Shown here: positions 19,541 through 61,090 of the stretch, piece by piece
Layout of the letters: each line of letters opens with the position of its first letter
Numbering within the stretch: position 1 is the first letter of the stretch
Source of the DNA: Girardia tigrina
Lineage: Eukaryota
Length of the DNA: 64,000 nucleotides
Assembly: GCA_001938485.1 (NCBI GenBank)
Contig: MQRK01241688.1
Coordinates: 1 to 64,000, forward strand
Reading direction: 5' to 3'
Translations under genes and position numbers: made by a program
The notes under the pieces: generated by a model
The model's database searches: none
The model's input: only the letters and a program-made list of their open reading frames with translations
What the model was told of the DNA's origin: nothing

Positions 19541-20741
19541 TGTAATATATTAATTTTAGTTAATACTTTGTCGCGTGATTGTTTCCTTTGCGGTGTGTCA
19601 ATTCGTTAGATTTTTTTCAGTTTTTTCCAACAATTCTTTTTAATATGAGAAACGTCCTTAAGAACAATAATCAGATGATCTGATTTCTCAGCTGATTCAT
19701 TTATTTTACTAAATTTTTACACTCTTGAAAATTTCAAGAACCCAAACTTGGAGACAAAAATACACAATCCATTGCAAAAAGAGTAATAAATTTGAAAACC
19801 CTAATGTGAACCCAATGTATGATCCAGTCATTGATATAGAAAGCCTGCATTATAGGATTAGATACATAAGATTGAAACCTGTTATTAAGATTTTCCAAAA
19901 ATAAAAATATCAACAAAATCATATCAGCAAAAAATTCGTGTAGGCATTGTTCTTGAAAAGAATAACCGTATTTATTCATTAAAAAAAGTGTAATAATTAA
20001 GAAAAATCACTGAAATAACATATGAAGAAAATAAATCACAAATTATAAAAAAATATTGTGATCGCTCCAAAATTGAAAAAATGATCAATCAAAGTTTTAA
20101 ACGTCAAATCTGCCATACCGTAAATAAATAAAAGTAAAACTAATAAAACGAAATTGGAAAACAAAAATGAATTTAATTAAAAAAAATCAATGATCGCTAA
20201 AAGATCATAATTAAAAAAATCAATAAGTACGTACGACAGAACTTTCAAATCAAAACCCATTTCCGACGAATTTTCGCAATTGTCTATTTATCAACCTTTC
20301 AAATCAAAACCAATTTCCGAAGAATTTTCGCAGTGGACTATTTATCAACCATTCAAAGCAGTTTCGACTAAAATATTGTATATTGTACAAAAGTATATTG
20401 TACAAAAATCAAAACCCATTTCCGACGAATTTTCGCAGTGGACTATTTATCAACCTTTCAAATCAAAACCAATTTCCGACGAATTTTCGCAGTTGATTAT
20501 TTATCAACCATTCAAAGCAGTTTCGACTAAAATATTGTATATTGTACGAAAGTTGTAAGTTGAATTTTTATTTAGTGTATTCTCATAATTATAATTAAAT
20601 CCCAGCCTTAACTTTATTTTTATTTAATTATAGTAAAAAAGATTAACTATAATATTTGGTGTCAGAAGTGGGATTTAATTGTAACGCTAGTTTTAACAAA
20701 TTGTATTTTTTTTAAAAGTAAAAAAATAATTATATATTACA
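19541..20741 (+). mobile_element. LTR remnant (LTR, PBS and LTR end)
   Basis: TGTAATATA...TATATTACA termini; ATTTT TSD; removing it restores the transposase frame DENKENVR; PBS-like TGGTGTCAGAAGTGGGAT at 20657-20674. Confidence 0.8.
20242..20552 (+). repeat. 54-bp tandem repeat in a higher-order (A-A-B)x2 arrangement
   Basis: Four copies of CTTTCAAATCAAAACCCATTTCCGACGAATTTTCGCA...TTTATCAAC and two copies of a CATTCAAAGCAGTTTCGACTAAAATATTGTA unit. Confidence 0.9.
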
Positions 20742-20971
20742 ATTTTCATCGGTATTCATATTGTTAGGGTGCCCACTTCTTTTCTTGTGGGTTACAGAGC
20801 CGGTCTCGTGAAACTTTTTAACCAAAACATGCATTGATTGTCGTGATGGAGGAGCGTTATTAGGATACTCTTTTGAAAATGCTGCAGCTACAGCTCTTGA
20901 ATTTCTATCATGCTTTGTCCACTGCTTTACTATAAAAATTTGTTGCTGAAGTGTTAATTGTCGTACCATGC

Positions 20972-22630
20972 CTGGACGACTGGCAATTTGGTTTCAGACC
21001 AAACAGAAGCTCAGTGCACACGATTGGTATCTTACGAAAGATACAAGAAGAGGCCAGATACCGGAACATAAACGTATTTGCTATTTTTATCGACCTTGAA
21101 AAGGCATTTGACAGCGTACCCAGGAAAGTTCTCTGGGATTGCCTTCAAGGAATTGGAATACAGGATCGGATGCTAAGTATCATCATGAAATTTAATGAAG
21201 GTTTCACGGGAAGCATTGGAAAGGATGAATTCAGTATGGACAAAGGAGTCCGTCAAGGTTGCGTATTGGGTCCTCTACTATTCAACTTTGTCTTTGATCA
21301 TGCAATTAAGACCGCGATCAAAGAAGGACTATCAGGTGGTGTGAAACTAAAATACAATGGGGAAGAGCTGACCGTGAACAGACTTGCTTATGCAGACGAC
21401 CTGTGCTTACTGGACGAAGACTATGGAAATATCGAACGGAATCTCACGTGTCTCAACACTGTGTTCTTGAATATGGGGCTCAAATCAACATTTGGAAAAC
21501 AAAGATCCTGAATCTCAATTACAGCAAGAGACGAGCTGAATGCCGGAATAGAATGTGTGGACGACTTCTGCTACCTGGGATCGATAATTGAAAGTGGAGA
21601 AAGCTCAGGTACGGACATCAAAGCCAGTATTCAGAAAGGAGCAGCGAAATTACGGACGATCAGACCAGTGTTGAAGAACAACAAATTGTCTCTCCGGAAT
21701 AAGAAGAACATAATTAGCAGCTGTGTATTCCAGGTGGTTTACTACAGCTGTGAAAATTGTAGGACAAATGAAGTACACGTGAAAAAGCTAAAAGCATTTC
21801 ACAATCTATGTACTCGGCGAACTCTGGGGATTTCGAAAGCCGAAAGGATCAGGATTGATGAGATATCAATGGGACTGCAAAGCCCAATGGATATCATGGC
21901 GCGGAGAAAAATCGTACACAATTCCAAGGTCGATTTAGGAGAATGCTTGGAGAACGTCAAGCAGATCAGTGAATGCGAACTCATCGGAGGAAAGAAGATC
22001 AGCGGTCGGAGAAAGCAACATCTGGTAGAATGTCTCAGAGTGGATGCTCACTGGCTCTTTGGAGCCGAGTATAGTTTCGGTGAATTTAAAAGAGATGTTC
22101 TGCAGGAAAACTTACTGAAGATGGATGGAAAGATCGAGAAAGTATTCCGACTGAAGAGAATCCAAAGAAGCGGGGACAAACAAACACTAAGACTGGTGCT
22201 ACCTCGTCTGAAAGAACACAGCTGCCCGATGGATTTTGTTACAAACAATATGCGGAAGTGAAGGAGTTAAACAGGCACCTCAGAAGAGATCACGAAGGAG
22301 CAGAGCCAATACCGCTGAAGAAGAGAGAGAAGAAAGCCCAGTCACGTCAGAAGAAAGGAAAATATCAATGTCAACACTGTCCGAGGGAATACAAGGCCGC
22401 TGGTTTCCTAAGGATTTATATTCAGAAGAATCATCAAGAAACGCAAACATCCAACGCCCAAAGAGAAGAAAACTTGGAAGAAGAGAACAAGGAAGAGCCG
22501 ACATCAAACCAATCCAATCCTCAGTTGCTGAACGCAACTGAAGCCTATCGGGGAGCCCTTAAATACTTTAGTTTGGGTGGACCCTCTAAAGAGCCTTAGG
22601 CTCAATACCATTACAGAGATGGGAGGCCCC
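20972..22630 (+). mobile_element. 5'-truncated RTE-clade LINE with C-terminal C2H2 zinc fingers (copy 1)
   Basis: QFGFR, FIDLEKAFDSV, GVRQGCVLGPLLF, YADD and FCYLGS; ZnFs ...KELNRHLRRDH and CQHCPREYK...H; candidate TSD CCATGC at 20966-71 and 22631-36. Confidence 0.9.
22543..22630 (+). ncRNA. conserved 3'-terminal structured RNA motif of the RTE-ZnF element (copy 1)
   Basis: Stems GCCT/AGGC, CTTTAG/CTAAAG, GGG/CCC, GAGCC/GGCTC and CCAT/ATGG; near-identical to 55823-55914. Confidence 0.75.
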
Positions 22631-24800: not shown

Positions 24801-25775
24801 AGTCTTGACAGTGACAAATAACTCACCAGAATTTTCTACAATACTTGTAATAATTATTTTATTTATTAAATATAATAAATATAAATAAATGAAAATAAAC
24901 GAACGGTAAAATATAGAAAATATAATGAATTAAAAAAATATTTTAAAATTTATTTTTTATTAATTAAATTATTTTTGATTTTATTTTTATTAATTTATTG
25001 AATATTATTATTAAGGTAAATAATTAATAAATCAATACAAAATGATGAAGAATTTAATTTGAAATTAAAAATAAAAATTTTGTTTAATAAATCACTGTTG
25101 AAATTTAATAATAAATTTTATTCGTGTATTTCGATATCCTCTTAAATGTGTGGGATATTGTTATTATCATTTATATAAAGTACTGTATGCTATTTTTATA
25201 AATCTTTAATATTCCTCTTTAAGTCGTATAAGACGATGTTAATATAAAACTTGATGATATATTAAATCTTTATGAAACTGATAGGTTGATTATTATTATT
25301 TTTAGTATTACGTTTATAGTAAATCTAACATGCTAATTTTTAAATCATAATAATTTGTAATTATATTCATTACAAGTGTGAACAGATGGACATTCAAACC
25401 AACTACTCTTAATTCTGGCTATTTATTGTCTAGAGCAGGGATGAGCAACACAAGACCCGTGGACCGCTTGTGAGCCGTTACAAATATTTATGTAGCCAGC
25501 CAAGAATTTCTAAAGTTAAAATAATTTTATCGACTTTCTCTTATCACTCTTATGTCTATCTCTCATAATTTCGCCGGAAAAGTAGGTTAAAGTTTAACCG
25601 TTAAAAAAATCAAAATTTTAAAACTACATTTACCTAAATATTAGGTCCTAAAATAATTAAAATTAAATGAAATGTAAGTAAAATTTAACTAAAATTAAAT
25701 ACAAAATAAATGACTTATGTTTGAGTGACAAATAAACTTTTTAACAAGAAATATTTTTTAATAAGAAACTTTATA

Positions 25776-27250
25776 CAGGGTGATCATAAAGTAACTACCG
25801 GGTTTTAAACTGCAATAACTTTTTTTGGCAAAACATTATGAAAAAAATGGTTTTAAATAACAAAAAAACATTAAAATTTAATAATATTCAACAGAATAAC
25901 CATCGACATCAATACAATGTTTAAGGCGTCCATGAAAAGACTTAATAGTATTTTGGCACATTTCACAATCTATTTTTGCCGCTTCTTGACAAATAAAATC
26001 TTTAAGTTGCTGAATTGTTTCTGGTTTTCTCTTATACACTTCATCCTTCAAATGCACACACACAAAAAAATCGAGTGGTGTCAAATCAGGTGACCTGGTC
26101 GGCCATACAGATGGACCACATCGTCCCAGCATTTAATAGCGTGTGAGCCGTGCTATCTGAGAAAACATTAATTTCTTCAATTTCCGGATAATCTGCCTTC
26201 AGAGCTTTAAAGATCATGTCCATGTAATAAAGAACGCTCACCTTTCCATGATCGAAATTGTCGGAAACCAGGACAATACTTTTCGTTAATCCGGGATTAA
26301 TCAAGAAAAACGCTTCATCCAAAAATTGTCGCACAATCAGTGAATAATGGGCAGGTGCTCCATCTTGCTGGAACACAGCTTTCGGTTTGCATGTTCTTCA
26401 TAACGATGACATAAAGCAACTTTTTAACATATCCAGGTAAAGCGCGACTGTTATATTTCCTTCAATAAAAAGGGGCCCATAAACATGAGTTGAAGACAAC
26501 TCCATCCAAACATTAACTTTTTCACTAGCCTGTGACTTCTCATATGTTTTGGTTGGTGTTTCAGTGCCCCAAATGCGACAGTTATGCCTGTTTACATTGC
26601 CGTTAAGATGGAAAGTTGAGTCATCAGAGAATATCAGGTTGCTAAGAAAATTTTCATCTGCATCTATCGATTGAATTAACGTTTCACACATAACACGTCT
26701 AAGAGCACATTCTTCTTCATACAAAAGTTGCGTGGCTTGAATTCTGTAGGGGAACATTTTTAAGTCGTTTCGTAATACTTTTTGAACAGTTCCATAAGAG
26801 CAATTCAGAGTTGACAACTATTTCCTGATAGAAGACTGGGGTTCTTGCTTAAAATTTTCTGCTATCTCATTTTTCTTTTCATCATCAATTGGTGATCTTC
26901 AAGATTTTGGGCATTTAGAGCGTTTCCTGTTTCTTCAAACTTTTTGAAGATGCTTCTAATACTTTTTTTCGGTTGGAATATTTTTCCATTTAAGTCGTTA
27001 AAGTTCTCTTCTTACTAAATTCACTGACTCATGCTTCACAAATAAAATAACAATTTTTACACGCTGATTTACATCCATTTTGAATCTTATGCTTAAAACA
27101 ATCACAACAATTAATAAATTTAAACAAAATGTACTTTTAATGAAATTTAAAAAAATAAGCTTCAAGATGCCTTAATAATTAAAAAGAAATAAAATATAAT
27201 TCAAAAGTTATTGCAGTTTAAAACCCGGTAGTTACTTTATGATCACCCTG
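25776..27250 (-). mobile_element. rosa/DD41D-type element nested in the hAT
   Basis: ~47-bp perfect TIRs CAGGGTGATCATAAAGTAACTACCGGG...; TA TSD; FSDDSTFHLNG, FQQDGAPAHY and WPTRSPDLTPLDFF. Confidence 0.93.
26133..26305 (-). other. foreign transposase fragment (Sola2-like) inside the DD41D catalytic domain
   Basis: SIVLVSDNFDHGKVSV...LKADYPEIEEINVFSDS interrupts FLDEAF|LGRCGP; boundaries approximate. Confidence 0.5.
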
Positions 27251-27699
27251 TAGATTAAATTCAATACTATACATTTATATTTGTTTAAAACTTACTAATT
27301 AAAATTTAAATTTTAAATAATAATATTTTGAAGAAGGTAGTCGAAGGCATTACATTATTGTCAACTAGGTTATTCGAATATTCTATTTTATTCGAAATTA
27401 AGTTTACCTTAATTTTTTTATAACTTTCAAATTTTAAACAATAATAGCGTGTCCGAAAAGCAAACAAAAAACGGAAGGTTGTGGATGAGCAAATGAATTT
27501 CGAAAAAAGTTGGAACTTTGATTATTTTTTCACTTTCATCAAAGATAAAGATGTATGCTTAATATGCTCTGAGACTGTGTTGACATTAAAAGAATATAAC
27601 ATAAAAAGACATTACGATAAAAAATATGAACAACAGTACAACTCTGGATGGATAAGTTTATACAAATGTAGAATAATTTGGAAAAAAAAGCTGTTTCAT

Positions 27700-33870: not shown

Positions 33871-34462
33871 CCTTTTGTCCTTTGGTACAACATTAGACAA
33901 GTTGCACTGTATACAGATAGCAAGTCACAAATACCTTCTAACATAGTACAGAGATTACTAAATCTAAATAGAAGCATAACTGTTAAATAATATGAATTTC
34001 TTCTCGAAAGATCCTTGAACTACATATATTTGAAAAATAACAAAGCAATCATACTAAGAACATTTAATAATAATTAAATAGCTAAGAATACATGTCTTCT
34101 ACGAATCCACTATCATTCTCTATTAAACTCATAAGTTTTAAGATCCAATATCAAGATTTGTAGGCTTATGATCAAGGGATTTGAAATTAATATCTGTAAT
34201 TAAAACATGAGCGAAATGCACGAAATCATTGACAACAAGCAATCAAATTGGCAAGTTTCATTCCTCTCTTATTTTTTCGGTATTCTTTTAACATTACTGC
34301 ATAGATTGCACCGCTTATGGCAGATCTTCGAGGAACGTAATCGGTATCCATAACGTCTCTTCTAAACTGGAACACGGTCAACATCAGACACAAGCGAGGC
34401 AAGATTTCGAATTTTAACTTCAGCGGAAATTTCTTTTACCAATCTTTTGCAAATCACTTATA

Positions 34463-35631
34463 TTAGGTTGTTCGATATGAAACGGGTCAAAATTAAAGTA
34501 AAATGTAAATCGATTTTTTTTAAATAATAACATTTTATTTTTAATCAAAATATCCCCCCATGTTGTCAACACACNNNNNNNNNNNNNNNNNNNNNNNNNN
34601 NNNNNNNNNNNNNNNNNNNNNNNNNNNNNNNNNNNNNNNNNNNNNNNNNNNNNNNNNNNNNNNNNNNNNNNNNNNNNNNNNNNNNNNNNNNNNNNNNNNN
34701 NNNNNNNNNNNNNNNNNNNNNNNNNNNNNNNNNNNNNNNNNNNNNNNNNNNNNNNNNNNNNNNNNNNNNNNNNNNNNNNNNNNNNNNNNNNNNNNNNNNN
34801 NNNNNNNNNNNNNNNNNNNNNNNNNNNNNNNNNNNNNNNNNNNNNNNNNNNNNNNNNNNNNNNNNNNNNNNNNNNNNNNNNNNNNNNNNNNNNNNNNNNN
34901 NNNNNNNNNNNNNNNNNNNNNNNNNNNNNNNNNNNNNNNNNNNNNNNNNNNNNNNNNNNNNNNNNNNNNNNNNNNNNNNNNNNNNNNNNNNNNNNNNNNN
35001 NNNNNNNNNNNNNNNNNNNNNNNNNNNNNNNNNNNNNNNNNNNNNNNNNNNNNNNNNNNNNNNNNNNNNNNNNNNNNNNNNNNNNNNNNNNNNNNNNNNN
35101 NNNNNNNNNNNNNNNNNNNNNNNNNNNNNNNNNNNNNNNNNNNNNNNNNNNNNNNNNNNNNNNNNNNNNNNNNNNNNNNNNNNNNNNNNNNNNNNNNNNN
35201 NNNNNNNNNNNNNNNNNNNNNNNNNNNNNNNNNNNNNNNNNNNNNNNNNNNNNNNNNNNNNNNNNNNNNNNNNNNNNNNNNNNNNNNNNNNNNNNNNNNN
35301 NNNNNNNNNNNNNNNNNNNNNNNNNNNNNNNNNNNNNNNNNNNNNNNNNNNNNNNNNNNNNNNNNNNNNNNNNNNNNNNNNNNNNNNNNNNNNNNNNNNN
35401 NNNNNNNNNNNNNNNNNNNNNNNNNNNNNNNNNNNNNNNNNNNNNNNNNNNNNNNNNNNNNNNNNNNNNNNNNNNNNNNNNNNNNNNNNNNNNNNNNNNN
35501 NNNNNNNNNNNNNNNNNNNNATATCTGTCAAGAAATACCTTATTTATTTTCATACGATAGTTCAAAGTTAAGTTATACGCGATTGAAATGTAAGGTGTGA
35601 AGTTTGACCCGTTTCATATCGAACAACCTAA
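34463..35631 (-). mobile_element. mariner element, interior lost in an assembly gap
   Basis: 29-bp perfect TIRs TTAGGTTGTTCGATATGAAACGGGTCAAA; TA TSD; CVDNMGGYFD* C-terminus visible at the gap edge. Confidence 0.85.
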
Positions 35632-36150
35632 TAAAACTCTTGTCCTCTTGGAAATAGATGATTATAGGAAATTCATCATGAGTAATAATGTTCAAAATGA
35701 ACTAATCAAAATAACAGTTAAATGTCTCCAAATTACTATTTGATCATTTATTGCGTCGCTCTCTAATTTCTGATAAAAAGAATTTTGACCCTCAAATAAG
35801 GAGCAAATATTCCTATAACTCAAGTTGGTGGTGATGTTAGTTAACTAACAAATTAAAAAAATACTATTAATGTAAAACCATAGTGGAATGAAATCTTAAA
35901 AAAACTTATAGAACCAAATTCTAGAAATTAAAAATATATTTAGATAATTTTTTAAAATAAGATTTTCAAAAATGTTCTTTTAAATAAATCTGAAACTCTA
36001 AAGAGTGTCCATAAAATTATCAATTTCCTGAAATCTTATTGAGATATTTTATTTATCCCATGTTGATATTGAGTAATATAAACCTTATTAATTTCATAAT
36101 TTACGCCAAAATGAGAATAATAATTTATTTTATTTTTTTCAATTTATTAG

Positions 36151-43076: not shown

Positions 43077-43712
43077 GTGCATTGGAGAGCATTTTCCAAA
43101 CACTTGCTGTGGAAAAACAAATGTTTATATTTAGTTTTGCCTGTTCCCTACTCTGAGGGTTTCAGGAAATTCAAAAACTCTATTTTGAAACATGATGAAA
43201 ATAATTTATTAAATTTAAAAATTGTATCTAGATCATGTAAGATAGGAAGTTTGTTTAGTAGTAAATCTATCACTCCAACTGGGTTATGTTCCAATTTAGT
43301 TTATCAATATAAATGTAATGGGTGTGACGCCATATACGTCGGAGAGACTTGTCGTCATCTCTGTAAACGGATTCAGGAACATAATCGCAGGGAAAGTGAT
43401 AGCAATATTGCTCAACATAAGAAGAACTGTTTGAATAATAAAGTTGATGTAAGTAATTTTAAGATTTTGTGTTCACAATTTAATAATTACTGGGAGAGGG
43501 TGATGTATTGAGAGGGTGAAGCATTGTTGATCAAATCTTTTGATCCTAAAATCAATGTCCAAACACCATCCTATTCAACTTTATTGAAAGTATTTTCATG
43601 ATTTAAATGACATAATGATTACATAAACATTGCTTTGATATATAAACGCGAGTATATCATTGTTAATTCAGTCTGATGATGACGGTCGATCCGTCGAAAT
43701 TAATAACAATAA
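43077..43712 (+). mobile_element. Penelope-like element 3' fragment (GIY-YIG endonuclease and pLTR)
   Basis: NLVYQYKCNGCDAIYVGETCRHLCKRIQEH...EALLIKSFDPKIN; hammerhead downstream. Confidence 0.9.
43657..43712 (+). ncRNA. minimal type I hammerhead ribozyme
   Basis: CTGATGA-T-GACGG-TCGAT-CCGTC-GAAA-TTAA-TA; perfect 5-bp stem II; palindromic stem III. Confidence 0.85.
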
Positions 43713-44159
43713 ATTCTGATGATCGTTTTTTGTTTATATTTAGGTCTGTTTTCATCTTTTTTCTCTATTTGTTCGATCCTTGCTTTGACTTAGTTCATTT
43801 TTGTTAGTTCATTTAATTTTTTTCTAATTTCGTTTCTTTTTCTAGTTTATTTAGTTTACCTACAATCAAATTTAGTATCTCTTTAGTATCTACTTTATCT
43901 TTGTATTGACTTTTCTCTTCTTCTATGGCATTTATCTCATCCTTATATTTTTGTGGATCTTATCAGTTACTTCTGTTGAATAATCAATCGAACTAGTCTT
44001 AACTCTGTTTAGTATTCTTTGAGTATCGTACGGAAACATTCGAATAAATAACATCCTGGTTAGTTTGTCTGCTTTACAATTTATATTTTTAATTCTTGGA
44101 TTAATTAATGGTAAAACTCATCTAGTCTCACCACAGGCAAACAAAAAAAATCAAAAATT

Positions 44160-46047: not shown

Positions 46048-47650
46048 AGCCTCCTCCGACTGTTAAGAATAACTGCGTATTACAAATAATTCTCAGCATT
46101 GGCGTACAGGGTAGTGAATCTTAGACTCTGTATCGGGTAGAAACCATTTGACAAATACAAAGTTTTCTGATCCTCTCACACGGCTTCAGATGCAAGAGTG
46201 CGAGCTTTAAATGCACGGGCACGCTTCGGCTTCCCTCTGAGAAATGACCAGTCACGTTCCTTTGTTCCGTGATTCTGGAGACTTCTGGTTGTATAAACGC
46301 ACTTAGTGCAACGGAGAAATGGGTAAGGAAACTGTGTTAATGAAACTATTTGGATGTTCGTAGTACCATTACCTTGGATTCAATGATCAATTAATAAATG
46401 CCTTTGTATCAATCCATTAGCTTTATAAGTTTTGTGGCAGTTCTCCATAGGACATATGAATAAACCACCACATCTCTGCGCCGTCGGCACCGTGGCCAGA
46501 TGCACATTCTTAACGTGTCTTGTGAGTTCCTTCTGCTCAGAAATTTTTTAAAGCAAGAAAAGAATGTACAAGCTAATATTTTGATGCACGGCTGAAGCAT
46601 TTTCGGATATTTTTTCTCGTGCTCGATTGCCTCTTTCAGTCGCTCAGAAATGGTTCCTTTGATCAGGTGTTTAAATTCCTCATCGTTGTCGAGAAGCCCT
46701 CTTTCGTTTAGACTTTCCCTGTATTCTACCAAATCTGCAGGATCGTTGAATATCCAGAGCACATTGCGAGCAATGCCATCTGTCATCAGTTGCCTTTTTC
46801 AACTGCTGATTCTGTGATTTTCTGAGGCGATCTCAGAGTTTATAACTCTTCAAACCTCAGTTACACCCTTCCGTGCATTGTATTCATAGAATAGTATGAG
46901 TCTTTTGGCTAGAATCACTCTTGCCCCATTCAGTCCAATCGTCATGTCCTTATTCAGGATCCTGTCGAATTTGATCTTTTTGAGAGCTGTCCTCGTGCAG
47001 CAATTATGGAAGACTTGTAACCGTGCAACATCCTTCTCAGGCGTTGTCCAGCACTCACTACCATAATAGACCACAGGGAAAATACTAGTCTCAATCAGTT
47101 TTTTCTTCAATACTATTGGGATGCGGTTACTCTGAATTGCACGTTGTAATTCTTTAAGCTACCGCATTCCATTTCGTATTCATTGACTAATATCCCGGTT
47201 GCAGCTAACACTAGTGGTCAATATACTTCCAAAATAACAGAATTATTTCACCCATTCTATGGCCTTCTCCCCACATTTGACTTGTGATATTCCAAAGCCT
47301 GATTCATCAGTAAGGCACATGAATTTCGTCTTAGTAGCACTCATTGTCAGTCCAAATTCCAGAAATGTGCTCCTTAATATATCCAAGTTTTTACAGACTC
47401 GATCAATATCTGAGTCGATGATACAGAGGTTATCTACATATGCAAGTCTGTTCACTTGAAATTCAGTGCCTTGCTCATCGATCAGGGAGACACCTCCTCC
47501 GAATCCTTTCATAATAGCCGTTTTGATCACTTCATCGAAGACCAAGTTGAATAAACTAGGTCCAATTACACATCCCTACCTAACACCTCTTTCTATGGGA
47601 AAATTACTGTTTCCTACAGTGGCGATAAATTTATCATGAAATTCATTGAT
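46048..47650 (-). mobile_element. 5'-truncated RTE-clade LINE with ZnF-type C-terminus (copy 3, most divergent)
   Basis: GVR*GCVIGPSLF, VNRLAYVDNL, FCYFGS and PVVYYGSECW; C-terminal HGTKERDWSFLRGKPK matches HGTTIHDCLFAIGKPK of copy 2. Confidence 0.88.
46049..46184 (-). ncRNA. divergent homolog of the RTE-ZnF 3' RNA motif
   Basis: TTGTAT/ATACAG and GAGTC-TAA-GATTC-ACTACC align without gaps to CTTTAG/CTAAAG and GAGCC-TTA-GGCTC-AATACC, with compensatory changes; closes with GCC...GGAGGC. Confidence 0.65.
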
Positions 47651-47670
47651 AAAACAGAGAAACGAATATC

Positions 47671-47945
47671 AATCATTTATGTAATATGAGCATAAATGAT
47701 TTTAAGATTTTGTGCAAGCATTTTAAAAATTATTGGGAGAGAGTGTCATGTGAAGTATTGTTGATAAGATCATGTGATCCTAAAATCAATGTTCAAACAG
47801 CACTCTCAAATAATTTGTTAAGAGTTTTCGATTAGACTTGCGTAAGCGATTGCATAATCATTCATTTGTTATATAACAGCAATAAAAAATAACATAATCA
47901 GTGATCTGATGATGACGGTTAAACCGTCGAAATATATTATCCTAA
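47671..47945 (+). mobile_element. short Penelope 3' fragment with a 5' inversion
   Basis: FKILCKHFKNYWERVSCEVLLIRSCDPKINVQT is homologous to 43460-43600; inverted ATCATTTATG...CATAAATGAT at the 5' junction. Confidence 0.85.
47898..47945 (+). ncRNA. minimal type I hammerhead ribozyme
   Basis: GAT-CTGATGA-T-GACGG-TTAAA-CCGTC-GAAA-TATA-TT-ATC. Confidence 0.85.
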
Positions 47946-48669
47946 AATAAAAATTTATTATTAAAATTTATTTATTCATTAATCAATTTATTTATTTATT
48001 ATCCTAATTTTTTTTCATTAATTTTATAGATTAGGATTATATTATTTGATAAAATTTAATTTAAAATCAGTATAAAATCAAAATTTATTTTAGCCAAACA
48101 AAAGAGTTTAACGTATTATTTATTATCAATATTTAAATTTAAAATACAATTTTTATTATTTGAAATACCGGTTACGATTTATAATACACTTGATGAATTT
48201 AAAATACCAAAANNNNNNNNNNNNNNNNNNNNNNNNNNNNNNNNNNNNNNNNNNNNNNNNNNTTAAGCAATATTTAAATTTATTATTATTTAACAGTATT
48301 AATATTATTTAATAATAAATTTATTATTATTTAATAGTGATTCATTAATTATAAAATTTTTAATAGCAGTTTTTATATATAATATATTTTATTAATTATT
48401 TATCGAATTTTAATTTGCAGAATTTCTAATTGGTTTTTAAATCTAAATTATCTTTTTTTTACATCTTTGACAACAAAAATTTCATAAAGTTATTCTTCGA
48501 AATAATTTTTTTAAAATAAATGCAAAATAATTAAAATTCAATTATTTTTAAAAATAACTCTTAAATTAATTAAGATATTTAGTTATAACTGTTTTATAAC
48601 TTTTGCTTTTAAATGTTTTTCTTTTTTTAGAGATTATTTACAAAAATTAATTATTCAAAAATTTAAAGA

Positions 48670-50039: not shown

Positions 50040-52614
50040 CTGATCTAGAGCTTTGAGAATTTGGTTAACTAACTATTGGTTTCCTGTCTCTGTAATTTTA
50101 TTTTATTTTGTTAACATCAAAGTTAATTTTCGTTTGTTTTTTAATATATTCGGTTTCGAAGTTATGTCTTTTTTTATCGTACAACTAAATTAATCCAAGA
50201 AGCATTTGCCTTTGATTAATTTAGTTAATTAGATTTGGGGGGGGGTTATTTTAGTAATAGTAAACACGGTCACTCTTACAAACAGTGCCCATCACGTGCA
50301 ACAGTGTATAATTGGATCAGAGACTTTAAACATGGCCAGCAATCCGTTTTTGATGCTGAGAGATCACGACGACCGTGTGAAATTTTACCCGGGAAAAGTG
50401 ATTTGTGCGTGAAGATCATATCGGAAGAGAGACGAATAAGCATCCATGAACTTGCACAGCGTCTATCCATCAGCTACCATTCTACATATGATATTCTGCA
50501 ATCATTTGGATTTCGTAAACTGTGTTCACGTTTTTATTCCCCGATTCCTATCCGGTGAAATGTGCGACAAACGTTTGCAGTGTTGCACTGCCAATTTGGA
50601 GTTACTTCGCACTCATGGTGATCGCTTCATCAATAACATCGTTATATAAGATGAAACCCAGGTGAGCTTGTTTGTGTCTGAGAGTAAGCGTCAATCTTCT
50701 GAGTGGTACTTCCCCTATGAAAGGGCTCCCAGAAAACTTTGAAGCGGCACCTCGCACAAGCGAGCAGCAATGCTGACTGTGTTCTGGGATTCCCATGGCA
50801 TTATTAAAATTGATTTCCTTGAGAAAGGACTGACAATAAATAGTGAATATTATGTTGAATTACTTCGCGATGTGAGAAAGTCTCGTAGGAAGCCAAGAGG
50901 GATCCAATTGTGGCTCCTTCAAGACAATGCACCCATTCTCACTTCGCGAGCAACTTTGACTGGTGTGGATGAATGTGGCTTTCAGTTAGTTTCCAACACC
51001 CCCTATAGCCGTGAACTAACCCCAAGTGATTTTGTGTTGTTTAAACAACTAAAGAATAATTTGAAAGGTATCCACTTTCATTCAGTTGATGTCCTCAAGA
51101 AGAAAGTCCTTAATATTCTCAATTCTTTGCCTCCCAATTTTTACAAAAATGCGTTCTCTGAGCTTGTTGCTCGCTGGCGCCAGTGTGTTGATGTACACGG
51201 CTCATACATTGAGAAATGATTTACTTTGATGTCATGTACTGATTCTGAAAAATATAAAGTTGATTGGACTTTGCTTAAGGCTGTCAAAATTGTTCATAAC
51301 GTCTGCCCGGGTACCCGTTGACCTCCATAACGGATACCCGGGTACCCGTCTTCCAGACTTTTTATTATTAAATGTACGCAATTTTGGAAATATTTTCAAA
51401 ATAAAGTATGTTTTTTCAAATGTTTTTTTGTTAGTTGAAGTTAAACGTGATGTACAAAGAAAACGACTGTCATCACTAACTACAGATCAAAACTTCAATC
51501 GTATCACATCAATCATAATGTTGTGATCAAAAATATAAAAATACTAATATTCACTTTATAAAATTTTAATAAACTACAATCTATCTATAATTTACTTTTT
51601 TGAAACAATTCATTGTTTTTGTTGTTGTTTTGATTATTATTTATAGACGATAAAAAATAGAACGCTATTTTTATGTCCTAACTTTTCTTTTTAATAAATT
51701 CATGTTACTTTATTGTATGTTTTATTTTAAGCAATTCAATATATAGGCAATAAAAAATAAAACAGACAACAAATTAACATAATTACCACAGAAATACTAC
51801 ATTACTAACTAAATACTAACTTTTAACAGGAAAAAGGTCTATTAAAACTCAAAAAACATTTAATTATTTAGCAAACCGGTTAAAACAAAATGTAAAAAGT
51901 TCATGTTCATAATTAGATCAAACCCTTGAGTTGATAGGTTTAGATAATATCAGTAATTTTATCATTAACAACCACGTCCCAGTTTCTGTTTAGGAAAACA
52001 AGCATATCAACTGGATGATTTACTCATTTGTAAATTTTAATTAATCAATATAAATTTTAATTAATCAATATAAATTATAATATTACTTATTATTAATGAA
52101 TTTAATATAATTTTTAATTGTCTTGTTTGGGTAAATTTCTCTGAATAATAACCAGTATTATCAAATAAAATAATATAAACAATTAATACAAGACAACATA
52201 TTGGAAAGGTCAATTTGGACTGCTTTTTGGAGATTGATTTAAATTTTACTTATTTACGTCACATTTCCGTGACTTATTAATGATGAGGAATTTAAAAAGG
52301 GCTAGTCATAAATGTCCAGCGTTTATCGAATTCAAAAAAATACTACTTCCATAACAGCGATTCTGTTATGAATTAGTACTAAAATTTAATTAAAATAATA
52401 TTATATTATAACTTAAACAACAGCAAAAACCTATTCTGATCAACGGATTTCTTATACATTTACTGGTTAAATTGTACAATCTGCGTTATTTCAGACGCCA
52501 ACGGGTACCCGAAAACTATTTTCAGTGCCCGTGTATAAAACAACAGGCGGGTACCCGTTGACAGCCTTAACTTGACTTTATTGTCGAGTCTAAGGACTTA
52601 TGGATCGCACCACG
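50040..52614 (+). mobile_element. mariner DD34D element, decayed, split by a hAT MITE
   Basis: PSRATVYNW, *DETQV, MLTVFWD, LLQDNAP, PYSRELTPSDF, GSYIEK*; right TIR-like GGACTTATGGATCGCACCACG-TA; left end not found. Confidence 0.85.
51276..52569. mobile_element. non-autonomous hAT-type element
   Basis: TIRs TAAGGCTGTCAA / TTGACAGCCTTA; degenerate 8-bp TSD ACTTTGCT/ACTTGACT; subterminal CGGGTACCCG palindromes at both ends. Confidence 0.8.
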
Positions 52615-53129: not shown

Positions 53130-53398
53130 TTCTTTTAGCAGTTCAAAAAGGTTTTTGGCGCTCAAACAAGAAGGTATCTTATGCACTTCATCATTGTTTT
53201 TCTCAACACCACTCCTTGACAAAAAGAAGAATGTCAGATCTGGGACACTGCTGAGATTACTTATTCATAAACACAGCCATTGTCCAGAAAGTTACTCATT
53301 TCTGTTAATCAAGGGTATTTATCACAATATCACGTCAACAACAGTATTCTCTACGATTGATCTTTAAAAGGACTACCATCAAATCCCAAAAGCCCTGA
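53130..53398 (+). mobile_element. Gypsy RT fragment, decayed
   Basis: FSTPLL..KK...ESYSFLLI...VFSTIDL*KDYHQIP. Confidence 0.7.
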
Positions 53399-54538
53399 CA
53401 TATATAACAAAATATAACAAAATACAGGAAGAAGCAAGATACAAAAATATCCACATTTTTGTAATCTTTATAGATCTGGAGAAAGCAATCGACAGCGTCC
53501 CCCGGGAGTCTCTCTGGAGCTGTTTAAAGAAACTAGTGATAAGGGGAGAATGCTTGAAGTTATCAAAGCCTTTTATGAGGAATTTAAAGGTTCAATAGTG
53601 GATAAAACCTTCAATATGAACAAAGGAGTTAGACAAGGTTGTGTTTTAGGTCCACTCCTATTTAAAATCGTCTTCGAGGCAGTCCTGAAACGAGCGATAT
53701 TGAATGGTCTCTAAGGAGGAGCAAAGACAACTACTGAAGATGGAAGCTGCCTCAAGATCAACAGACTGGCTTACACGGACGATCTTTGTCTGATAGACAC
53801 CGACTGGAACAATCTTATCAGAATCCTTATTCTACTGAAGGACTCATTTGTAGATTTAGGACTAAAGATCAATATCAATAAGACCAAAGTTAAGAACCTA
53901 AACAGAGATACCAAAGTTCTCACCGCCGGACACCAGCTTGAGACTGGTTTTGAATGTGTATCCAAATTCGTCCATTTGGGTTCCACAATCTCCTCAAATG
54001 GCACCCCTGAAGATGATATAAGAGAAATAATTCAAAATGGTACCAGGAAGATCAGGGACCTCAAACCGATTCTGAGGAGCTCCAAACTCTCTTTACAGAA
54101 CAAGAAGAAGATTTTCAGCTCTTGCATACTTCCCGTAGTATATTACAGTTGTGAGAGTTGGCGAACAGGTAACAAAACAATCAAGATGCTGGCTGCCTTT
54201 CATAATTTGTGTACTCTCACAATCATGAAAGTGCAGAAGACTGAGAGGATACAGATGGAGACTATCGACATTGGACTCCCGCTCCCCATGGATATCATTG
54301 CAAGTAGAAGACTTGCCTATCATAGCAGGTTGGACACCTCTGATACACCAAACATTATGAGGTGTGTGTGGAGAGCAACAATGCCAATGGGAAAGAAGAT
54401 CAGTGAGAAAAAGAAGCAAGCTCTCTCCGAATGCCTCAGAGTGGATATACAGTGGCTCTATGGGGATAGTGAAAAGTATGAAGACTTCATACACCACATT
54501 GTCCACAAAGACCCCACAATAGAAAGAGGGCAATATAT

Positions 54539-55181
54539 TGTTGGGTTTTAAATTATTAAAATTATCTTTAATTCAATTATTCACTTTTAAAATACAATTC
54601 TTAAATCTTTAATCGTAAATCTCTTTTCTTAATTCTTTAATCAATAATTCTCAATCNNNNNNNNNNNNNNNNNNNNNNNNNNNNNNNNNNNNNNNNNNNN
54701 NNNNNNNNNNNNNNNNNNNNNNNNNNNNNNNNNNNNNNNNNNNNNNNNNNNNNNNNNNNNNNNNNNNNNNNNNNNNNNNNNNNNNNNNNNNNNNNNNNNN
54801 NNNNNNNNNNNNNNNNNNNNNNNNNNNNNNNNNNNNNNNNNNNNNNNNNNNNNNNNNNNNNNNNNNNNNNNNNNNNNNNNNNNNNNNNNNNNNNNNNNNN
54901 NNNNNNNNNNNNNNNNNNNNNNNNNNNNNNNNNNNNNNNNNNNNNNNNNNNNNNNNNNNNNNNNNNNNNNNNNNNNNNNNNNNNNNNNNNNNNNNNNNNN
55001 NNNNNNNNNNNNNNNNNNNNNNNNNNNNNNNNNNNNNNNNNNNNNNNNNNNNNNNNNNNNNNNNNTAGACTAAATATTATTTTATTTGAAGTTAATAATT
55101 TTATTAAAAGAATTATTTAAAAATTTTCCTTTATAAAATTTTATCAAAAGTGTTCACATGTATTTTTTTGGAACCCTAACA
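54539..55181. mobile_element. solo LTR inserted in RTE copy 2 (spans a gap)
   Basis: TGTTGGGTT...AACCCTAACA termini; ATAT TSD; removing it restores the frame RGQYINSLIREG. Confidence 0.8.
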
Positions 55182-55822
55182 ATATCAACTCCTTAATAAG
55201 AGAAGGGAAGCAGAACAGAACAAGAGCCGATCTGCCGAAATTACTCAATGAGAGAGATAAACTCATTCAATGTACGATAGAAGATTGCTTTAATGAGTTT
55301 GCCGAACAAAAGGAGCTAAATAGACATCTCAAGCGGGATCACACGGAATCCACAGTAAGCATCCAGCTTCAGCTCCCAGAAGATGAAAAACCGTTTAAAT
55401 GTACCAAATGCAGCAAAGGTTACAAAACGAAAGAATGGTTCACTAGGCATCTGCGTAAAGATCATCGAATAGAATCTAGGGAGAATATCAATGAACATCC
55501 GACAGAATCATCAGTGCAATCCTACAGAAGAAGCGACAATCCAGACAGAGACGAAGAACCCACACTTATCCAAACGACCAATTTTCAGTCAGCAACAGTC
55601 ACCCCGACTATTTCAACGGTGGTGGAGCAAACGACTTATCCGAAAGATACACATTTGTCTTTTATGATCGCAGATCCAAATGAGAGGGGAAAGTTCAAAT
55701 GCCCCAAGTCCACCAATACAGCCAAAGGGATGCTCAATCATGGTACCACAATTCATGATTGCTTGTTTGCAATAGGAAAGCCCAAGAAATTTCGGAGACT
55801 GAAGCACTCCGTCCCCGTAGGA

Positions 55823-55914
55823 GGCCTATCGGGGAGCAGCTAGCACTCTTTAGTTTGGGTGGACCCTCTAAAGAGCCTCGTGGCTCAATACCATTCGAAA
55901 GAGATGGGAGGCCC
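55823..55914 (+). ncRNA. conserved 3'-terminal structured RNA motif of the RTE-ZnF element (copy 2)
   Basis: 31-nt block CTTTAGTTTGGGTGGACCCTCTAAAGAGCCT identical to copy 1; differences confined to predicted loops and linkers. Confidence 0.75.
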
Positions 55915-55966
55915 ACATCGGAGAGACAAATCGAAATTTTCGAAAAAATAAATAAATATAATAATA

Positions 55967-56414
55967 CAGTCGACTCTAGCCAAACCGTACATTATAGAAC
56001 CGAAAAAAAGTCTTTCATGTGGATCATGATAAATAAAAAATATTTTCATTCACGTTTTATTTTTTTTTAAAACATTTTTCAACATTTTTTAATCTGGTCA
56101 ATTTGATTTTTCTTTTTTATCTTTTGTGCCTGAGGTGTTGGGCGTGGGTTTGCTTAATTATGCACATTCCTTTGCCACATCTACTTTTTGTAGCGTCTCT
56201 TCTCAGACCTTCCATGTTCAATCCGTTACATTCTTTTGCATGTCGTCTATCCATTGTCCCTTTGACCTTTCTCTTCGTCTTTCTCTTTCCACTCAATTTC
56301 CCTTTAATCATAACATTCACTAGTGCTTGAGTTAAAACAAGCACTCAATTTGATAATCTTGCTGAATAACATTATTTTCGGTTCTATAATGAACGGAGTA
56401 GCTAGAGTCGGATG
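55967..56414. mobile_element. pogo/Tigger-type MITE hosting an RTE fragment
   Basis: TA-CAGTCGACTCTAGC...CATTATAGAACCGAAAA / TTTTCGGTTCTATAATG...GCTAGAGTCGGATG-TA. Confidence 0.8.
56108..56344 (-). mobile_element. 5'-truncated conventional RTE 3' end
   Basis: VMIKGKLSGKR...; related to 3851-4063; purine-rich tail; 10-bp TSD TCAATTTGAT at 56098 and 56345. Confidence 0.8.
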
Positions 56415-56653
56415 TATTAATATTAATTCAACTTATAGTTTAACTTATACCTCATTGATATTTCTTTATCAATTTCACATTATTCCTTAAATTAAAAGAA
56501 AAAAACGAAAATCAATAATTAAAAAAAAAATCTGTTGTATCACAATCGTTTTGTCACCCCAGTCATATCAGTTTTGATTACTCTCATTACTTTCTCCACA
56601 CCAAAGAATTCTCAGATTTCTTTTGATATTTGTAAAAACACTATTTGTAAAAA

Positions 56654-57504: not shown

Positions 57505-57816
57505 ATAATTATGTTAATCGGCGACGGAAACACCGATTGTTTATTTCACTGTGCCGAAAGCATTCTCCAGTGCAAAATCAGCGGTTTTTCGTCCTTCAAA
57601 GATCTTTCACTATTCTATCGAATGCTCAATGAACAATCGAGCGACAATTGCGACATTGAGAGATTATTGGAGCGATTATCCGGTGAATTTTCTGTGTGAT
57701 TTGACCGACTGATTATCGATTTTTTTGTGATTATTGCAGAAATATTCAAATCAAATATCGAAAAAGCGATTGAAATAATTGACAAAGAAAATTTGAGTGA
57801 TTTTGAAATATCAAAG
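57505..57816 (+). CDS. two internal host exons (57505-57682, 57740-57816), resembling the C-terminal end of a Rab-GAP TBC domain
   Basis: TTAG acceptor; 57-nt GTGAAT..TGCAG intron; in-frame LFHCAESILQ...RMLNEQS...DIERLLERLSEIFKS; GTATTT donor. Confidence 0.6.
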
Positions 57817-57819
57817 GTA

Positions 57820-60185
57820 TTTTTTTATTATTTTTTTTCAGTATTTTATTTATTGATTTTTTTTAATTTTTATCGAATAAAAAACATTTTTAAAATTTTG
57901 AATTTTTTATCGCGTTTATTTTTTAAATATTATTATATGACTTTTTAGCATCCGATTCGTTTTTTAATTTAATTTTTACTTTTTAATATATTTTTAAATT
58001 ATCATTTTTTAATAATTATTTTCTTTCGGTTTGATTTAATAATTATTTCGTTAAACTTTGAGAAAACAAATATTTCATTTTTTTCTAAATGTTTTCAGAA
58101 AAAAAGCATTTTTGAAAATTAAAAAAATTGATTTTTTCTAAAATTTTTTTCGAATCGATTTATTTATTAGATTTTTTTACTTCCGATTCGTTTTTTAATA
58201 TTTTTAATTTAATTTTTCGATTTTTTAAACTTTTTAATATTCATTTTTTAATTATTTAGTTTTTTTGGCTGGATTTATTTTATGATTTATAACCGTATTT
58301 TCTTAAAATTTTAATTTGTCTTTTTATAATTTTTTATTTAATTTTTAACGTTTTTACTTTGATTTTTTACTTTTGAAATTTTATTCTTTTAATTTCATAT
58401 TATTTTTTTCAAAATATCAGTTTATTTTTTAAATTTTTTAATTGAATTTTTTTGTTAAAAAATTTTACAGATTTTTAATTATTTACTGTTTTTAATCATT
58501 TAGTTTTTTTCGACTGGATTTATTTAAGGTTTTATAATCGAGATTTTCTTAAAATTTTAGTTTTTTCTTTTTATAATTTTTAAAATTAGTTTTTAACATT
58601 TTTACTTTTTATTTTTGAATTTTCTAAATTTTTTTTATTTATTTTTTTTTCAAAATACCAAGTTATTTTTTTAAAATATTTTAAATGATTTTTTTGTTTT
58701 CTCTTTTTGTAAAATTTTCTGAATTTTTGATTATTATCATTTTAGAATTTTTGAATCGATTTATTTATTAATTGTTTTTTTTATATTTTTTATTATTTTT
58801 TCAGTATTTTATTTATTAATTTTTTTATTTTTTTTCGAATAAAAAACATTTTTAAAAGTTTGAATTTTTTATCGCGTTTATTTTTTAAATGTTATTATAT
58901 GACTTTTAGCATCCGATTCGTTTTTAATTTAATTTTTACTTTTTAATATATTTTTAAATTATCATTTTTTAATAATTATTTTCTTTCGATTTGATTTAAT
59001 AATTATTAAGTTAAAATTTGAGAAAACAAATATTTGATTTTTTCTAATTATTTTTAGAAAAAAGCATTTTTGAAAATTAAAAAAAATGATTTTTTTCTAA
59101 AATTTTCTAATTATTATAACTTTTTTTGAATCGATTGATTTATTAGATTTTTTACATCCGATTCGTTTTTTAATATTTTTAATTTAATTTTTCGATTTTT
59201 TAAATTTTTTTTAATATTCATTTTTTTAATTATTTAGATTTTTTGGTTGGATTTATTCTATGAATTATAACCGTATTTTTCTTAAAATTTTAATTTGTCT
59301 TTTTATAATTTTTTATTTATTTTTTAACGTTTTTACTTTTGAAATTTTATTTTTTTAATTTCATATTATTTTTTTCAAAATTTTTTAATTGAATTTTTTT
59401 GTTTACAGATTTTTAATTATTTAATGTTTTATTATTTATTGTTTTTTAATCATTTAGTTTTTTTCGACTGGATTTATTTAATATTCTATATTCGAGATTT
59501 TCATAAAATTTTAGTTTTATCTTTTTATAATTTTTAAAATTGGTTTTTAACGTTTTTACTTTTTATTTTTGAATTTTCTAAATTTAATTTTTTTTCAAAA
59601 TAACAAGTTATTTTTTTAAAATATTTTAAATGATTTTTTTGTTTTCTCTTGTTATAAAGTTTTCTGAATTTTTGATTATTATCACTTTAGAATTTTTTGA
59701 ATCGATTTATTTAATAATTGTTTTTTATATTTTTTTATTATTTTTTCAGTATTTTATTTATTGATTTTTTTTTATTTTTATCGAATAAAAAACATTTTTA
59801 ATAGTTTGAATTTTTTATCGCGTTTATTTTTTAAATGTTATTATGTGACTTTTAGCATCCGATTCGTTTTTAATTTTTACTTTTTAATATATTTTTAAAT
59901 TATCATTTTTTAATAATTATTTTCTTTCGGTTTGATTTAATAATTATTTTGTTAAAATTTGAGAAAACAAATATTGATTTTTTTCTAATTATTTTTAGAA
60001 AAAGCATTTTTGAAAATTAAAAAAAATTAAATTTTTTCTAAAATTTTCTAATTATTATAATTTTTTTCGAATCGATTTATTTATTAGATTTTTTTACATC
60101 CGATTCGTTTTTTAATATTTTTAATTTAATTTTTCGATTTTTTAAACTTATTTTTAATATTCATTTTTTTAATAATTTAGTTTTT
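57820..60185 (+). repeat. T-rich tandem satellite, ~950-960 bp unit, ~2.5 copies
   Basis: Landmarks such as TATCGCGTTTATT and TTAGCATCCGATTCG recur at ~57910, ~58870 and ~59817. Confidence 0.9.
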
Positions 60186-60189
60186 TATG

Positions 60190-61090
60190 ACGTTAATGAT
60201 GACTATAAAGAACAGTTCCAAACATGAATAAATTTTCTGAGTAGTCTTGACATGAAAATGGAATATCGAAAAGGTGAAAAACATTCAAACGCTGATGCAA
60301 TGTCAAGAAATTCGTGCGAACTATGCAATCAGTGTCAAACAATGCATGAAGAGGCCAAGAAAGGAAAGATTAAAACAAGAATACTGGCATTAAGTGAAGA
60401 ATCAGATGGTTTTAAATGGCAGAAGAATAATAACGAAATAAAACAAATAATCGAGGACATAAGTAAAGGTAGAACAAGAAAATGGTCATTAAAGAAGGAT
60501 ATCGTCATAAATCAAGATAATAAATACTGGATCCCAAAGGCAGAACGAGCAAATTTTATTGAAGAATGCACAAATTGTTGTGTCATGCAGGTTGTAAAAA
60601 GGTCTATAACTACCTCCGAGATGATTTCGACATGGAAAATATGAGAGAATTTATAAAAGAAATCGTTCAAAGTTGCATAAATTGTCAGAAAAGGAAGACA
60701 CTAACAACCAAAACGAAAGAAAAGCATATAAAGCAATTAGCGGATGAACCTTTCCAGAAAATATACATTGATTTTTGTGGACCATTCAAAAGAAATATAA
60801 ATGGATGTCAATATATATTTGCAATAATTGACCAGTTTAGCCTGAATGCAGCAGCTAGTCAAGATGAAAAAACAGTTAGAAAATTGTTATTGGACAGATG
60901 GATATGAAAATTCGGACCAGCAAAAGAAATCCACGTAGACATAGGAAAAACATTTGAATCGGTTTTGTTCAAGGACATGGCGACAAAATTTCAAGTTGAG
61001 GTATTTTATTCGAGTCCATATCATCATGACACAAATGGAATCGTGGAAAGATAGTTTCGCACGATCAGAGATGCTTTGAATAATTTCTAT
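60190..61090 (+). mobile_element. Gypsy pol fragment (RNase H end and integrase)
   Basis: EYRKGEKHSNADAMSR, HKLLCHAG, CINC, PFQKIYIDFCGPF and SPYHHDTNGIVER; same family as 44160-45760. Confidence 0.88.

Follow-up and report, generated by a model that had tools for sequence, protein, structure and literature searches.

A decayed LINE 3' end in Girardia tigrina that probably preserves the remains of a branched RNA recognition tail

Most LINEs are of the stringent type, in which the protein binds a structure in the 3' tail of the RNA before target-primed reverse transcription (as described in PMC4176376, which covers the ZfL2 and UnaL2 tails and places the binding region of ZfL2 between the endonuclease and the reverse transcriptase). 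In the portion of the literature covered here, the recognition by RTE elements of their own RNA is little described: the case in print is an 18-nt predicted 3' hairpin of plant RTE elements, which displays compensatory changes and is common to Au-like SINEs (PMC6007223). Tails common to RTE elements and SINEs are also reported in PMC3747384 and PMC5786205, and RTE and Vingi proteins together with their UTRs have already been used as all-RNA gene-insertion tools, according to PMC13708176. Among the elements with a different endonuclease, the core of the 3'UTR of R2Bm (the 'R2 tag') is presented in PMC10499050 as two stems of variable size and a single-stranded five-base junction that begins with C126-A127-A128-U129, whose second and third bases are conserved adenosines. 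The protein of L1Tc ends with two C2H2 fingers that prefer RNA and act as chaperones, and the RNA element that PMC2805920 describes for L1Tc is a 5' HDV-like ribozyme. Neither the present group with three fingers nor a multibranch RTE tail is described in the literature covered, to which most subscription papers and the consensus entries of Repbase and Dfam, a place where such a family may already figure, do not belong. Overall, the kind of element reported below is well known, while its branched anatomy overlapping the stop codon looks new.

The DNA analysed, referred to throughout as the window, is a stretch of 64,000 nucleotides of Girardia tigrina (contig MQRK01241688.1). It is AT-rich, of eukaryotic type, and crowded with transposon remnants. 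A decayed reverse transcriptase (RT) followed by C2H2 fingers can be recognized in three stretches (elements 1, 2 and 3), all of them truncated at the 5' end; with the motif included, these span respectively ~20957-22627 (+), ~53388-55913 (+, with an assembly gap at 54657-55065) and 47662-46048 (−). Element 3 is damaged by in-frame stops, one frameshift and a 48-codon deletion, and its protein identity to elements 1 and 2 is 31-33%, as compared to 41-45% between elements 1 and 2. A first, sequence-only reading had described the motif of element 3 as a third, highly divergent copy of a structured RNA, giving it no identity. We identify it as the 3' end of a decayed non-LTR retrotransposon: the motif is the terminus of all three RT-bearing elements of the family in the window, it lies on the sense strand of each, it overlaps the last codons and the stop of the ORF, and it is more conserved than the RT gene. 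The locus of element 3 is a dead repeat in the genome, with no sign of a host function. The coordinates of the elements, of the three copies (85 to 138 nt, four helices) and of the parts of copy 3 are given in Table 1.

Table 1. Coordinates, in the numbering of the window, of the retrotransposon elements, of the three copies of the motif, of the parts of copy 3, and of other repeat segments.
Feature	Positions	Strand	Remarks
Element 1, coding part	20957-22539	+	5'-truncated RT and fingers 1-2
Element 2, coding part	53388-55843	+	5'-truncated RT and three fingers
Element 3, coding part	46176-47662	−	decayed RT, truncated at the 5' end, with thumb and three C2H2 fingers
Copy 1 of the motif	22543-22627	+	ORF-frame stop TAA at 22560-22562
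Copy 2 of the motif	55823-55913	+	stop TAG at 55841-55843; GAAA tetraloop on P5
Copy 3, whole motif	46048-46185	−	multibranch: P1 closing stem, P3, P4 and P5 arm
Copy 3, P1 5' strand AGCC	46182-46185	−	pairs with 46048-46051; outer pair A-U, versus G-C in copy 2
Copy 3, P1 3' strand GGCT	46048-46051	−	AT-rich flank starts immediately beyond
Copy 3, stop codon TGA of the element 3 ORF	46176-46178	−	inside the motif; the intact relative P0005 also terminates at this residue (ASEAV)
Copy 3, purine tract GAGAGGA	46171-46177	−	candidate pseudoknot strand; GGGGAGC in copies 1 and 2
Copy 3, P3 5' strand	46155-46163	−	9 bp in its extended form (core 46155-46160); differs from copy 1 by two double changes and a GU
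Copy 3, P3 loop	46134-46154	−	length 21 nt, versus 14 nt without variation in copies 1 and 2; a 3-bp hairpin may form in it
Copy 3, P3 3' strand	46125-46133	−	core 46128-46133; extension overlaps the P4 5' strand
Copy 3, P4 hairpin GAGTC-TAA-GATTC	46116-46128	−	one double change and one GU
Copy 3, junction CACTA plus CC	46110-46116	−	conserved; CAATA-CC in copies 1 and 2
Copy 3, expanded P5 arm	46053-46109	−	present in copy 3 only; support for its internal stems does not exceed chance
Six segments with other repeat remnants	9696-10993; 11729-13387; 25774-27252; 34458-35636; 50235-51219; 60566-60907		

The motif of element 3 had been placed just after the ORF stop. In fact the TGA falls in its 5' segment, the motif beginning 6 nt upstream of it, and the stops of copies 1 and 2 are internal in the same way; both the position of the stop within the motif (nt 18-20 versus 7-9) and its type (TAA, TAG, TGA) vary. 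An A-rich, loosely repeated sequence follows copies 1 and 2, but not copy 3. No convincing target-site duplication was found at elements 1-3, and a clean microsatellite tail is likewise absent; for this reason the true 3' ends of the elements are not pinned. A search for polyadenylation hexamers near the copies located the nearest ones ~60 nt past copy 1 and ~40 nt past copy 2, and none for copy 3. Some accidents of the individual insertions can also be recognized. Element 1 has lost ~80 codons, finger 3 included, in an internal deletion that stops at the motif (22539-22543, +); the AAGCC at the 5' edge, common to copies 1 and 3, is probably a junction product rather than a sign of homology. 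A 466-nt element with 52-nt terminal inverted repeats (55958-56423) starts 45 nt past copy 2.

Intact relatives of each element were retrieved by protein searches: identity is 94% between P0155 and element 1, 89% between P0001 and element 2, and 85% between P0005 and element 3. P0155 is an intact, full-length protein of 1145 residues with an endonuclease, an RT and three fingers (Pfam PF14529 and PF00078); an endonuclease family was found in 5 of the 12 relatives scanned, RNase H in none of the 12. In a FastTree phylogeny of RT regions with 140 rows (element 3 plus 139 of 156 database proteins; the remaining 17 were left out for want of a single active-site motif followed by sufficient sequence) the three families and P0007 are grouped in a single clade (8 rows, support 100). 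We provisionally take the family to be RTE-like, a label that derives from post-RT motifs. The layout of the R2 clade differs from that of the family: the family has an N-terminal APE endonuclease and C-terminal fingers, while R2 has a C-terminal restriction-like endonuclease and an N-terminal finger/Myb region. The AlphaFold model of P0155 (mean pLDDT of 84) is most similar to LINE-1 ORF2p, and next to R2 proteins, with three separately folded fingers at the end; a helical segment with a Trp and basic residues lies between the endonuclease and the RT. Since this segment is also seen in distant relatives, it does not tie the protein to the motif. A wider, unnamed group of LINE proteins (P0007-P0032 and P0045) carries two to four C-terminal C2H2 fingers; the last finger is conserved and is followed by W-S and basic residues, and P0045 also ends with GGLS.

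Copy 3 is the true orthologue of the motifs in copies 1 and 2, and the homology is secure. The motif starts 49 nt (element 2) and 51 nt (element 3) past shared GKPK codons, and the 24-nt core of copy 3 agrees with copy 1 at 17 of 24 positions, the highest non-self score in an ungapped scan of 127,954 positions (a scan that does not score copy 2, the loop of which is one base longer). When the 200-nt region was shuffled 5000 times with conservation of the dinucleotides, 17/24 was reached twice and never with both P3 and P4 paired; pairing of P3 and P4 alone occurred in 1059 of the 5000 shuffles, and one AT-rich site outside the motifs (45799) passes a filter of pairing plus 13/24. The terminal pattern GG-N(1-3)-AGGC is present at only 11 sites on the two strands of the window. 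As to the comparison between the other two copies, the DNA of elements 1 and 2 is 59.6% identical over 1065 aligned RT columns and 85.1% identical over the 94 columns of the motif. The 13 differences between copies 1 and 2 all lie outside the 38 stem columns (P = 3e-4 on the assumption of independence, although they are grouped in three clusters), so that these two copies are identical in every stem; the 14-nt loop of P3 and the junction are also invariant between them.

The letters of copy 3 that the sequence-only reading had reported were confirmed one by one, linker included: ACTTTGTAT (46163-46155), a 21-nt loop, ATACAGAGT (46133-46125), GAGTC/GATTC (46128-46116), CACTACC (46116-46110), CTGT (46109-46106) facing ACAG (46063-46060), and, at the end, GGAGGAGGC (46057-46049). 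Its tally of the changes also stands. With respect to copy 1, P3 has two double changes (U-A to G-C and G-C to U-A) and one C-G to U-G, while in P4 a C-G pair has become U-A, a double change, and a G-C pair has become G-U; a further double change, which had been missed, occurs in the outer pair of P1, copy 2 having G-C there and copy 3 A-U. As to the alignment, that reading does not hold: it was said to be ungapped, but a register without gaps, fixed on the 3' core, loses 4 of the 6 pairs of P3, and a 7-nt insertion in the P3 loop is needed. MAFFT chooses the ungapped register. The inserted register is favoured by the 5' anchor, as P3 starts 23, 24 and 24 nt past the first G in copies 1, 2 and 3, respectively; furthermore, a single upstream 6-mer is fully complementary to the 3' strand of P3 in copy 3, and it has the same 5' offset as in copy 2. 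The insertion (46151-46162, −) lies within a TTTGT repeat with a 6-nt spacing, and may have originated by local duplication.

In the inserted register all ten pairs of P3 and P4 are kept after 8 substitutions in the 20 stem positions of copy 3. In simulations at three transition biases the ten pairs were all kept in 207, 527 and 2567 of 600,000 cases (0.03-0.4%), figures that ignore the freedom in placing the 5' strand of P3; P4 alone keeps its pairs in 3.5-10.9% of the simulations. The ability of a model built from copies 1 and 2 to recognize copy 3 is more limited. An Infernal search of the whole window returned 11 matches at E≤10, copy 3 not being among them and nine sites outside the motifs scoring 7.3-9.2 bits; in a search confined to 301 nt around copy 3, this was the top of 5 matches, in the expected register, with 4.4 bits and E = 0.33. 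A model of the sequence only, from the same two copies, missed copy 3 both window-wide and locally. With a scorer that tolerates variation in loop length copy 3 obtained 24.2 bits, against a maximum of 23.2 bits for 1036 dinucleotide shuffles, none of which reached it; when pairing was omitted from the same scorer, copy 3 obtained 18.9 bits, and 2 of the 1036 shuffles reached that value. These scores are optimistic, because the scorer was written after copy 3 had been seen. Copy 3 thus scores better than its dinucleotide shuffles, by a modest structural margin.

Taken together, orthology, pairing of P3 and P4 beyond the random expectation, and the better discrimination obtained when pairing is considered (from 2 to 0 of 1036) make selection on the RNA fold the likely cause of the kept pairing. 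Any such selection acted on the active lineage and not on the locus of copy 3. The structural case is thinner than the high rating given to it by the sequence-only reading, consisting of one divergent sequence and three or four double changes. Moreover, since copy 3 is dead, as indicated by its stops, frameshift and deletion, the two C-to-T changes that produce wobble pairs and the C in its junction may all be products of decay. The part of that reading concerned with the last arm fares worse: the stem TGAGAAT/ATTCTTA is present, but the arm folds like its shuffles (z = −0.03, with 448 of 1000 shuffles as good; for the insert alone, 109 of 1000), and selection on the fold finds no support there.

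The energetics of folding are also less favourable than the pairing statistics. Compared to shuffled sequences, the folds of copies 1, 2 and 3 have z-scores of −1.25, −1.31 and +0.17, none much better than the shuffles, and the z-scores of the antisense strand are no better. Forcing the four-helix fold costs 5.2, 5.9 and 8.6 kcal/mol over the minimum in the three copies, so that the fold stands above the energy minimum throughout. In copies 1 and 2 the ensemble probability of P3 is 0.00-0.06, and the minimum-energy folds do without it, pairing instead the purine tract with the CCCU tract; in copy 3 the extended P3 displaces P4, which has an ensemble probability of 0.17-0.25. In each of the three copies the purine tract has a complementary tract of 4-5 nt in the P3 loop, the register of which is not fixed. 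If the purine tract formed a pseudoknot with the P3 loop, the candidate strands being GGGG/CCCU in copies 1 and 2 and either GAGA/UUUC or AGAGG/UUUCU in copy 3, this pairing would be reconciled with the four helices; a second candidate pseudoknot, between GGU of the loop and ACC of the junction, is present in all three copies. A simple four-helix model does not explain the invariant 14-nt loop and the two candidate pseudoknots. At 22554 and 55835 (+) copies 1 and 2 encode Ser (AGC) where the intact relatives have Gly: the G tract is therefore probably longer in active elements, which would strengthen the pairing with the CCCU tract. From the alignment of the three copies we regard the predicted fold as supported for P1, P3 and P4, the three helices that RNAalifold returns on the block alignment.

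The motif model rests on three nucleotide sequences from a single 64-kb window. No further copies, including a partner SINE, were found in the window with Infernal models with and without structure. Among external DNA sequences, a pattern scan of GTDB gave no matches and a protein scan of GTDB gave 8 candidate stretches, of which none was confirmed; blastn against phages and plasmids gave no match, and tblastn against plasmids only 2 distant RT records. The termini of the related proteins are more informative. P0001, P0002, P0155 and P0156 end with PVGGLSGG(S/C/P), which is the 5' end of the motif read as codons; the terminus of P0157, FSLGGPSKEP, corresponds to P3, loop and P4 of copies 1 and 2 translated in a shifted frame, and gave the best result among 1404 frame-to-terminus comparisons; and P0006 ends with AVRESQ where copy 3 reads AV*EDQ, running four codons further. 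These termini point, indirectly, to additional copies of the family in which the motif would be present.

Several known classes of RNA were considered. Rfam gave no match at the gathering score over the window, and at E≤10 the 181-221 nt around each copy produced only matches in the flanks or of the kind expected by chance. A tRNA-like or 5S-like nature is not indicated, as ARAGORN found no genes and no such Rfam family appears at E≤10 in the same 181-221 nt. Short core patterns of the hammerhead, twister and hairpin ribozymes are absent from all three motifs on either strand; the two loose matches to the hairpin pattern are both in flanks. HDV-like ribozymes are built as a nested double pseudoknot, with a P3/L3 unit of ~13-14 nt between the strands of P2 and P1; the most favourable mapping, made by inspection, leaves room for only 6-9 nt, and there is no Rfam match. 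The AUGA/GA quartet and apical AA of a SECIS element are absent in all three copies, and the stops of the family vary. Mimicry of 5S RNA, suggested by a resemblance of the fingers to TFIIIA, was rejected because there is no 5S match and TFIIIA is only sixth, among generic C2H2 proteins (E = 6.5e-4). A stop read-through or frameshift signal was also rejected: the type and spacing of the stops vary and the downstream frames are not conserved.

From the position of the motif and its likeness to described systems, we judge it rather likely that it is a cis-acting 3' tail, bound by the element's own protein in order to start target-primed reverse transcription. In this mechanism the motif would serve in cis as an identity tag of the element's RNA. 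The transcript is predicted to fold into a multibranch unit, with its ends closed by P1 and with P3, P4 and a variable P5 disposed around the single-stranded CA(A/C)UA; by analogy with L2 and R2 elements, the freshly made ORF protein would bind this fold, the probable contact being the basic helix that separates endonuclease and RT (residues ~290-350 of P0155). The bound fold would position the RNA's 3' end in the RT site, so that DNA nicked by the endonuclease could prime reverse transcription. Stems would be read by their shape, and would therefore co-vary between families, while in the junction and loop the base sequence itself would be recognized; RNA chaperoning by the C-terminal C2H2 fingers may assist, as L1Tc suggests. 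Copy 3 would then be a dead fossil of the recognition signal, a view that we hold with better than even confidence.

The tails of ZfL2-1, ZfL2-2 and UnaL2, as characterized in PMC4176376, resemble the motif in being structured sense-strand 3' RNAs of an APE-type LINE, with exchangeable stems, conserved unpaired bases, and a Trp-plus-basic segment between endonuclease and RT; however, these tails of the L2 clade are described as single stem-loops, whereas here we find 85-138 nt and four helices, an overlap with the end of the ORF, and three C2H2 fingers. The plant hairpin of PMC6007223 likewise belongs to an RTE-type element and is a 3'-terminal predicted structure kept by compensatory changes, but it is much shorter than the present tail, for which there is no partner SINE in the window. 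The R2Bm core reported in PMC10499050 can be compared with the motif for its two stems joined by a short junction: copies 1 and 2 have CAAUA between P4 and P5, while copy 3 has CACUA, with a C at the third position where R2 needs an A. This four-base match is weak and may be a coincidence; besides, R2 is described with a restriction-like endonuclease and N-terminal fingers, unlike the APE endonuclease of the motif family. L1Tc, Ingi and Vingi share with the family an APE-RT ORF that ends in C2H2 fingers flanked by basic stretches, although L1Tc has two such fingers in the account of PMC2805920 and the family three. If the proposed function is correct, a compact tail of 85 nt with fixed and swappable parts, paired with P0155, would offer a minimal tag for experiments, from which it could be learned if the junction logic of R2 extends to APE-type elements.

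Other readings have to be weighed against a recognition tail. That copy 3 resembles copies 1 and 2 by chance is in our view highly improbable: the covariance model does not single it out window-wide and the sequence-only model misses it even locally, but its core match is the best of the window, its position deviates from the protein-based prediction by no more than 2 nt, and it ends with one of the few occurrences of the GG-N(1-3)-AGGC pattern. A more articulate objection is that copy 3 is homologous while the compensation in P3 is an alignment artefact, with only P1, P4 and the junction shared and the 5' half of copies 1 and 2 folding otherwise. This would agree with the choice of register by MAFFT and the loss of 4/6 pairs in it, with the minimum-energy folds of copies 1 and 2, in which the purine tract pairs with the CCCU tract and P3 is missing, with the frequency at which P4 is kept by chance, and with a score that beats 1034 of 1036 shuffles already without pairing. 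We still deem it unlikely, as only one upstream 6-mer pairs fully, at the 5' offset of copy 2, P3 can be lengthened, in copy 2 to 8 bp and in copy 3 to 9 bp, and RNAalifold recovers the helix; furthermore, P3 and the pairing between the purine and CCCU tracts could be present together in a pseudoknot, a structure that is beyond the scoring of the folding program.

If the fold is accepted, its function may still be different. A conserved 3' RNA structure with another job, setting or protecting the transcript end or controlling translation termination and read by host factors instead of the element's RT, would be in keeping with the way in which P1 joins the ends of the unit, closing in copy 3 exactly where the AT-rich flank starts, with the lack of a polyadenylation hexamer near any copy, and with a stop codon inside the motif. 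We give this a small but real chance: no Rfam family was matched, and the varying type and position of the stop, together with the four additional codons of P0006, imply that there is no fixed recoding geometry. An undescribed self-cleaving ribozyme, cutting the RNA of the element from a read-through transcript at its 3' end, appears very unlikely. Invariant unpaired segments in copies 1 and 2 (the 14-nt P3 loop and the junction), variable arms of which one is GAAA-capped, and two possible pseudoknots in all three copies are what one might look for in a ribozyme, and RTE-clade elements do carry them; but the RTE/LINE ribozymes that PMC8501958 and PMC5786205 describe sit at the 5' end, none of the copies contains a hammerhead, twister or hairpin core and no Rfam ribozyme appears at E≤10, copy 3 keeps only 7 of the 14 bases of the P3 loop, low for a catalytic core, and the same features are expected of a protein-binding tail. 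A broader proposal, to which we assign a low probability, is a pseudoknotted RNA of an undescribed class, acting either as a new self-cleaving ribozyme that defines the 3' end or as a fold that the three C2H2 fingers of the family recognize. In the latter case the C-A-A-U junction would be the recognition device of the R2 tag, common to LINE lineages with distinct endonucleases and portable to cargo RNAs. The recognition tail bound by the element's own protein is the reading that we prefer.

Other features were observed in the window. A Penelope-like remnant with a GIY-YIG domain (43077-43730, +) has a second piece, 70% identical to it, at 47693-47950 (+), just past the truncated 5' end of element 3; a minimal hammerhead-like sequence follows each piece (~43673 and ~47906), the first of which was not scored by Rfam. 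Such sequences are described for Penelope-like elements in PMC4209133. An uninterrupted protein kinase ORF of 273 codons (17268-18089, +; Pfam Pkinase, E = 2e-31) lies among repeats, and a search for solved-structure relatives returned none at E≤1e-20. Another ORF of 419 codons (118-1377, −), with a short N gap and no Pfam match, is presumably a DNA transposase, judging from its motifs. Remnants of Mariner/Tc1-type transposases, pairs of inverted repeats (234, 50 and 37 nt) and a zinc-binding fragment of a retroviral-type integrase are distributed among the six segments at the end of Table 1. Finally, a 16-nt tandem array, a duplication with a spacing of 159 nt and an AT-rich array with a period of ~950 nt are found at 15985-16215, 20247-20553 and 57786-60183, respectively.
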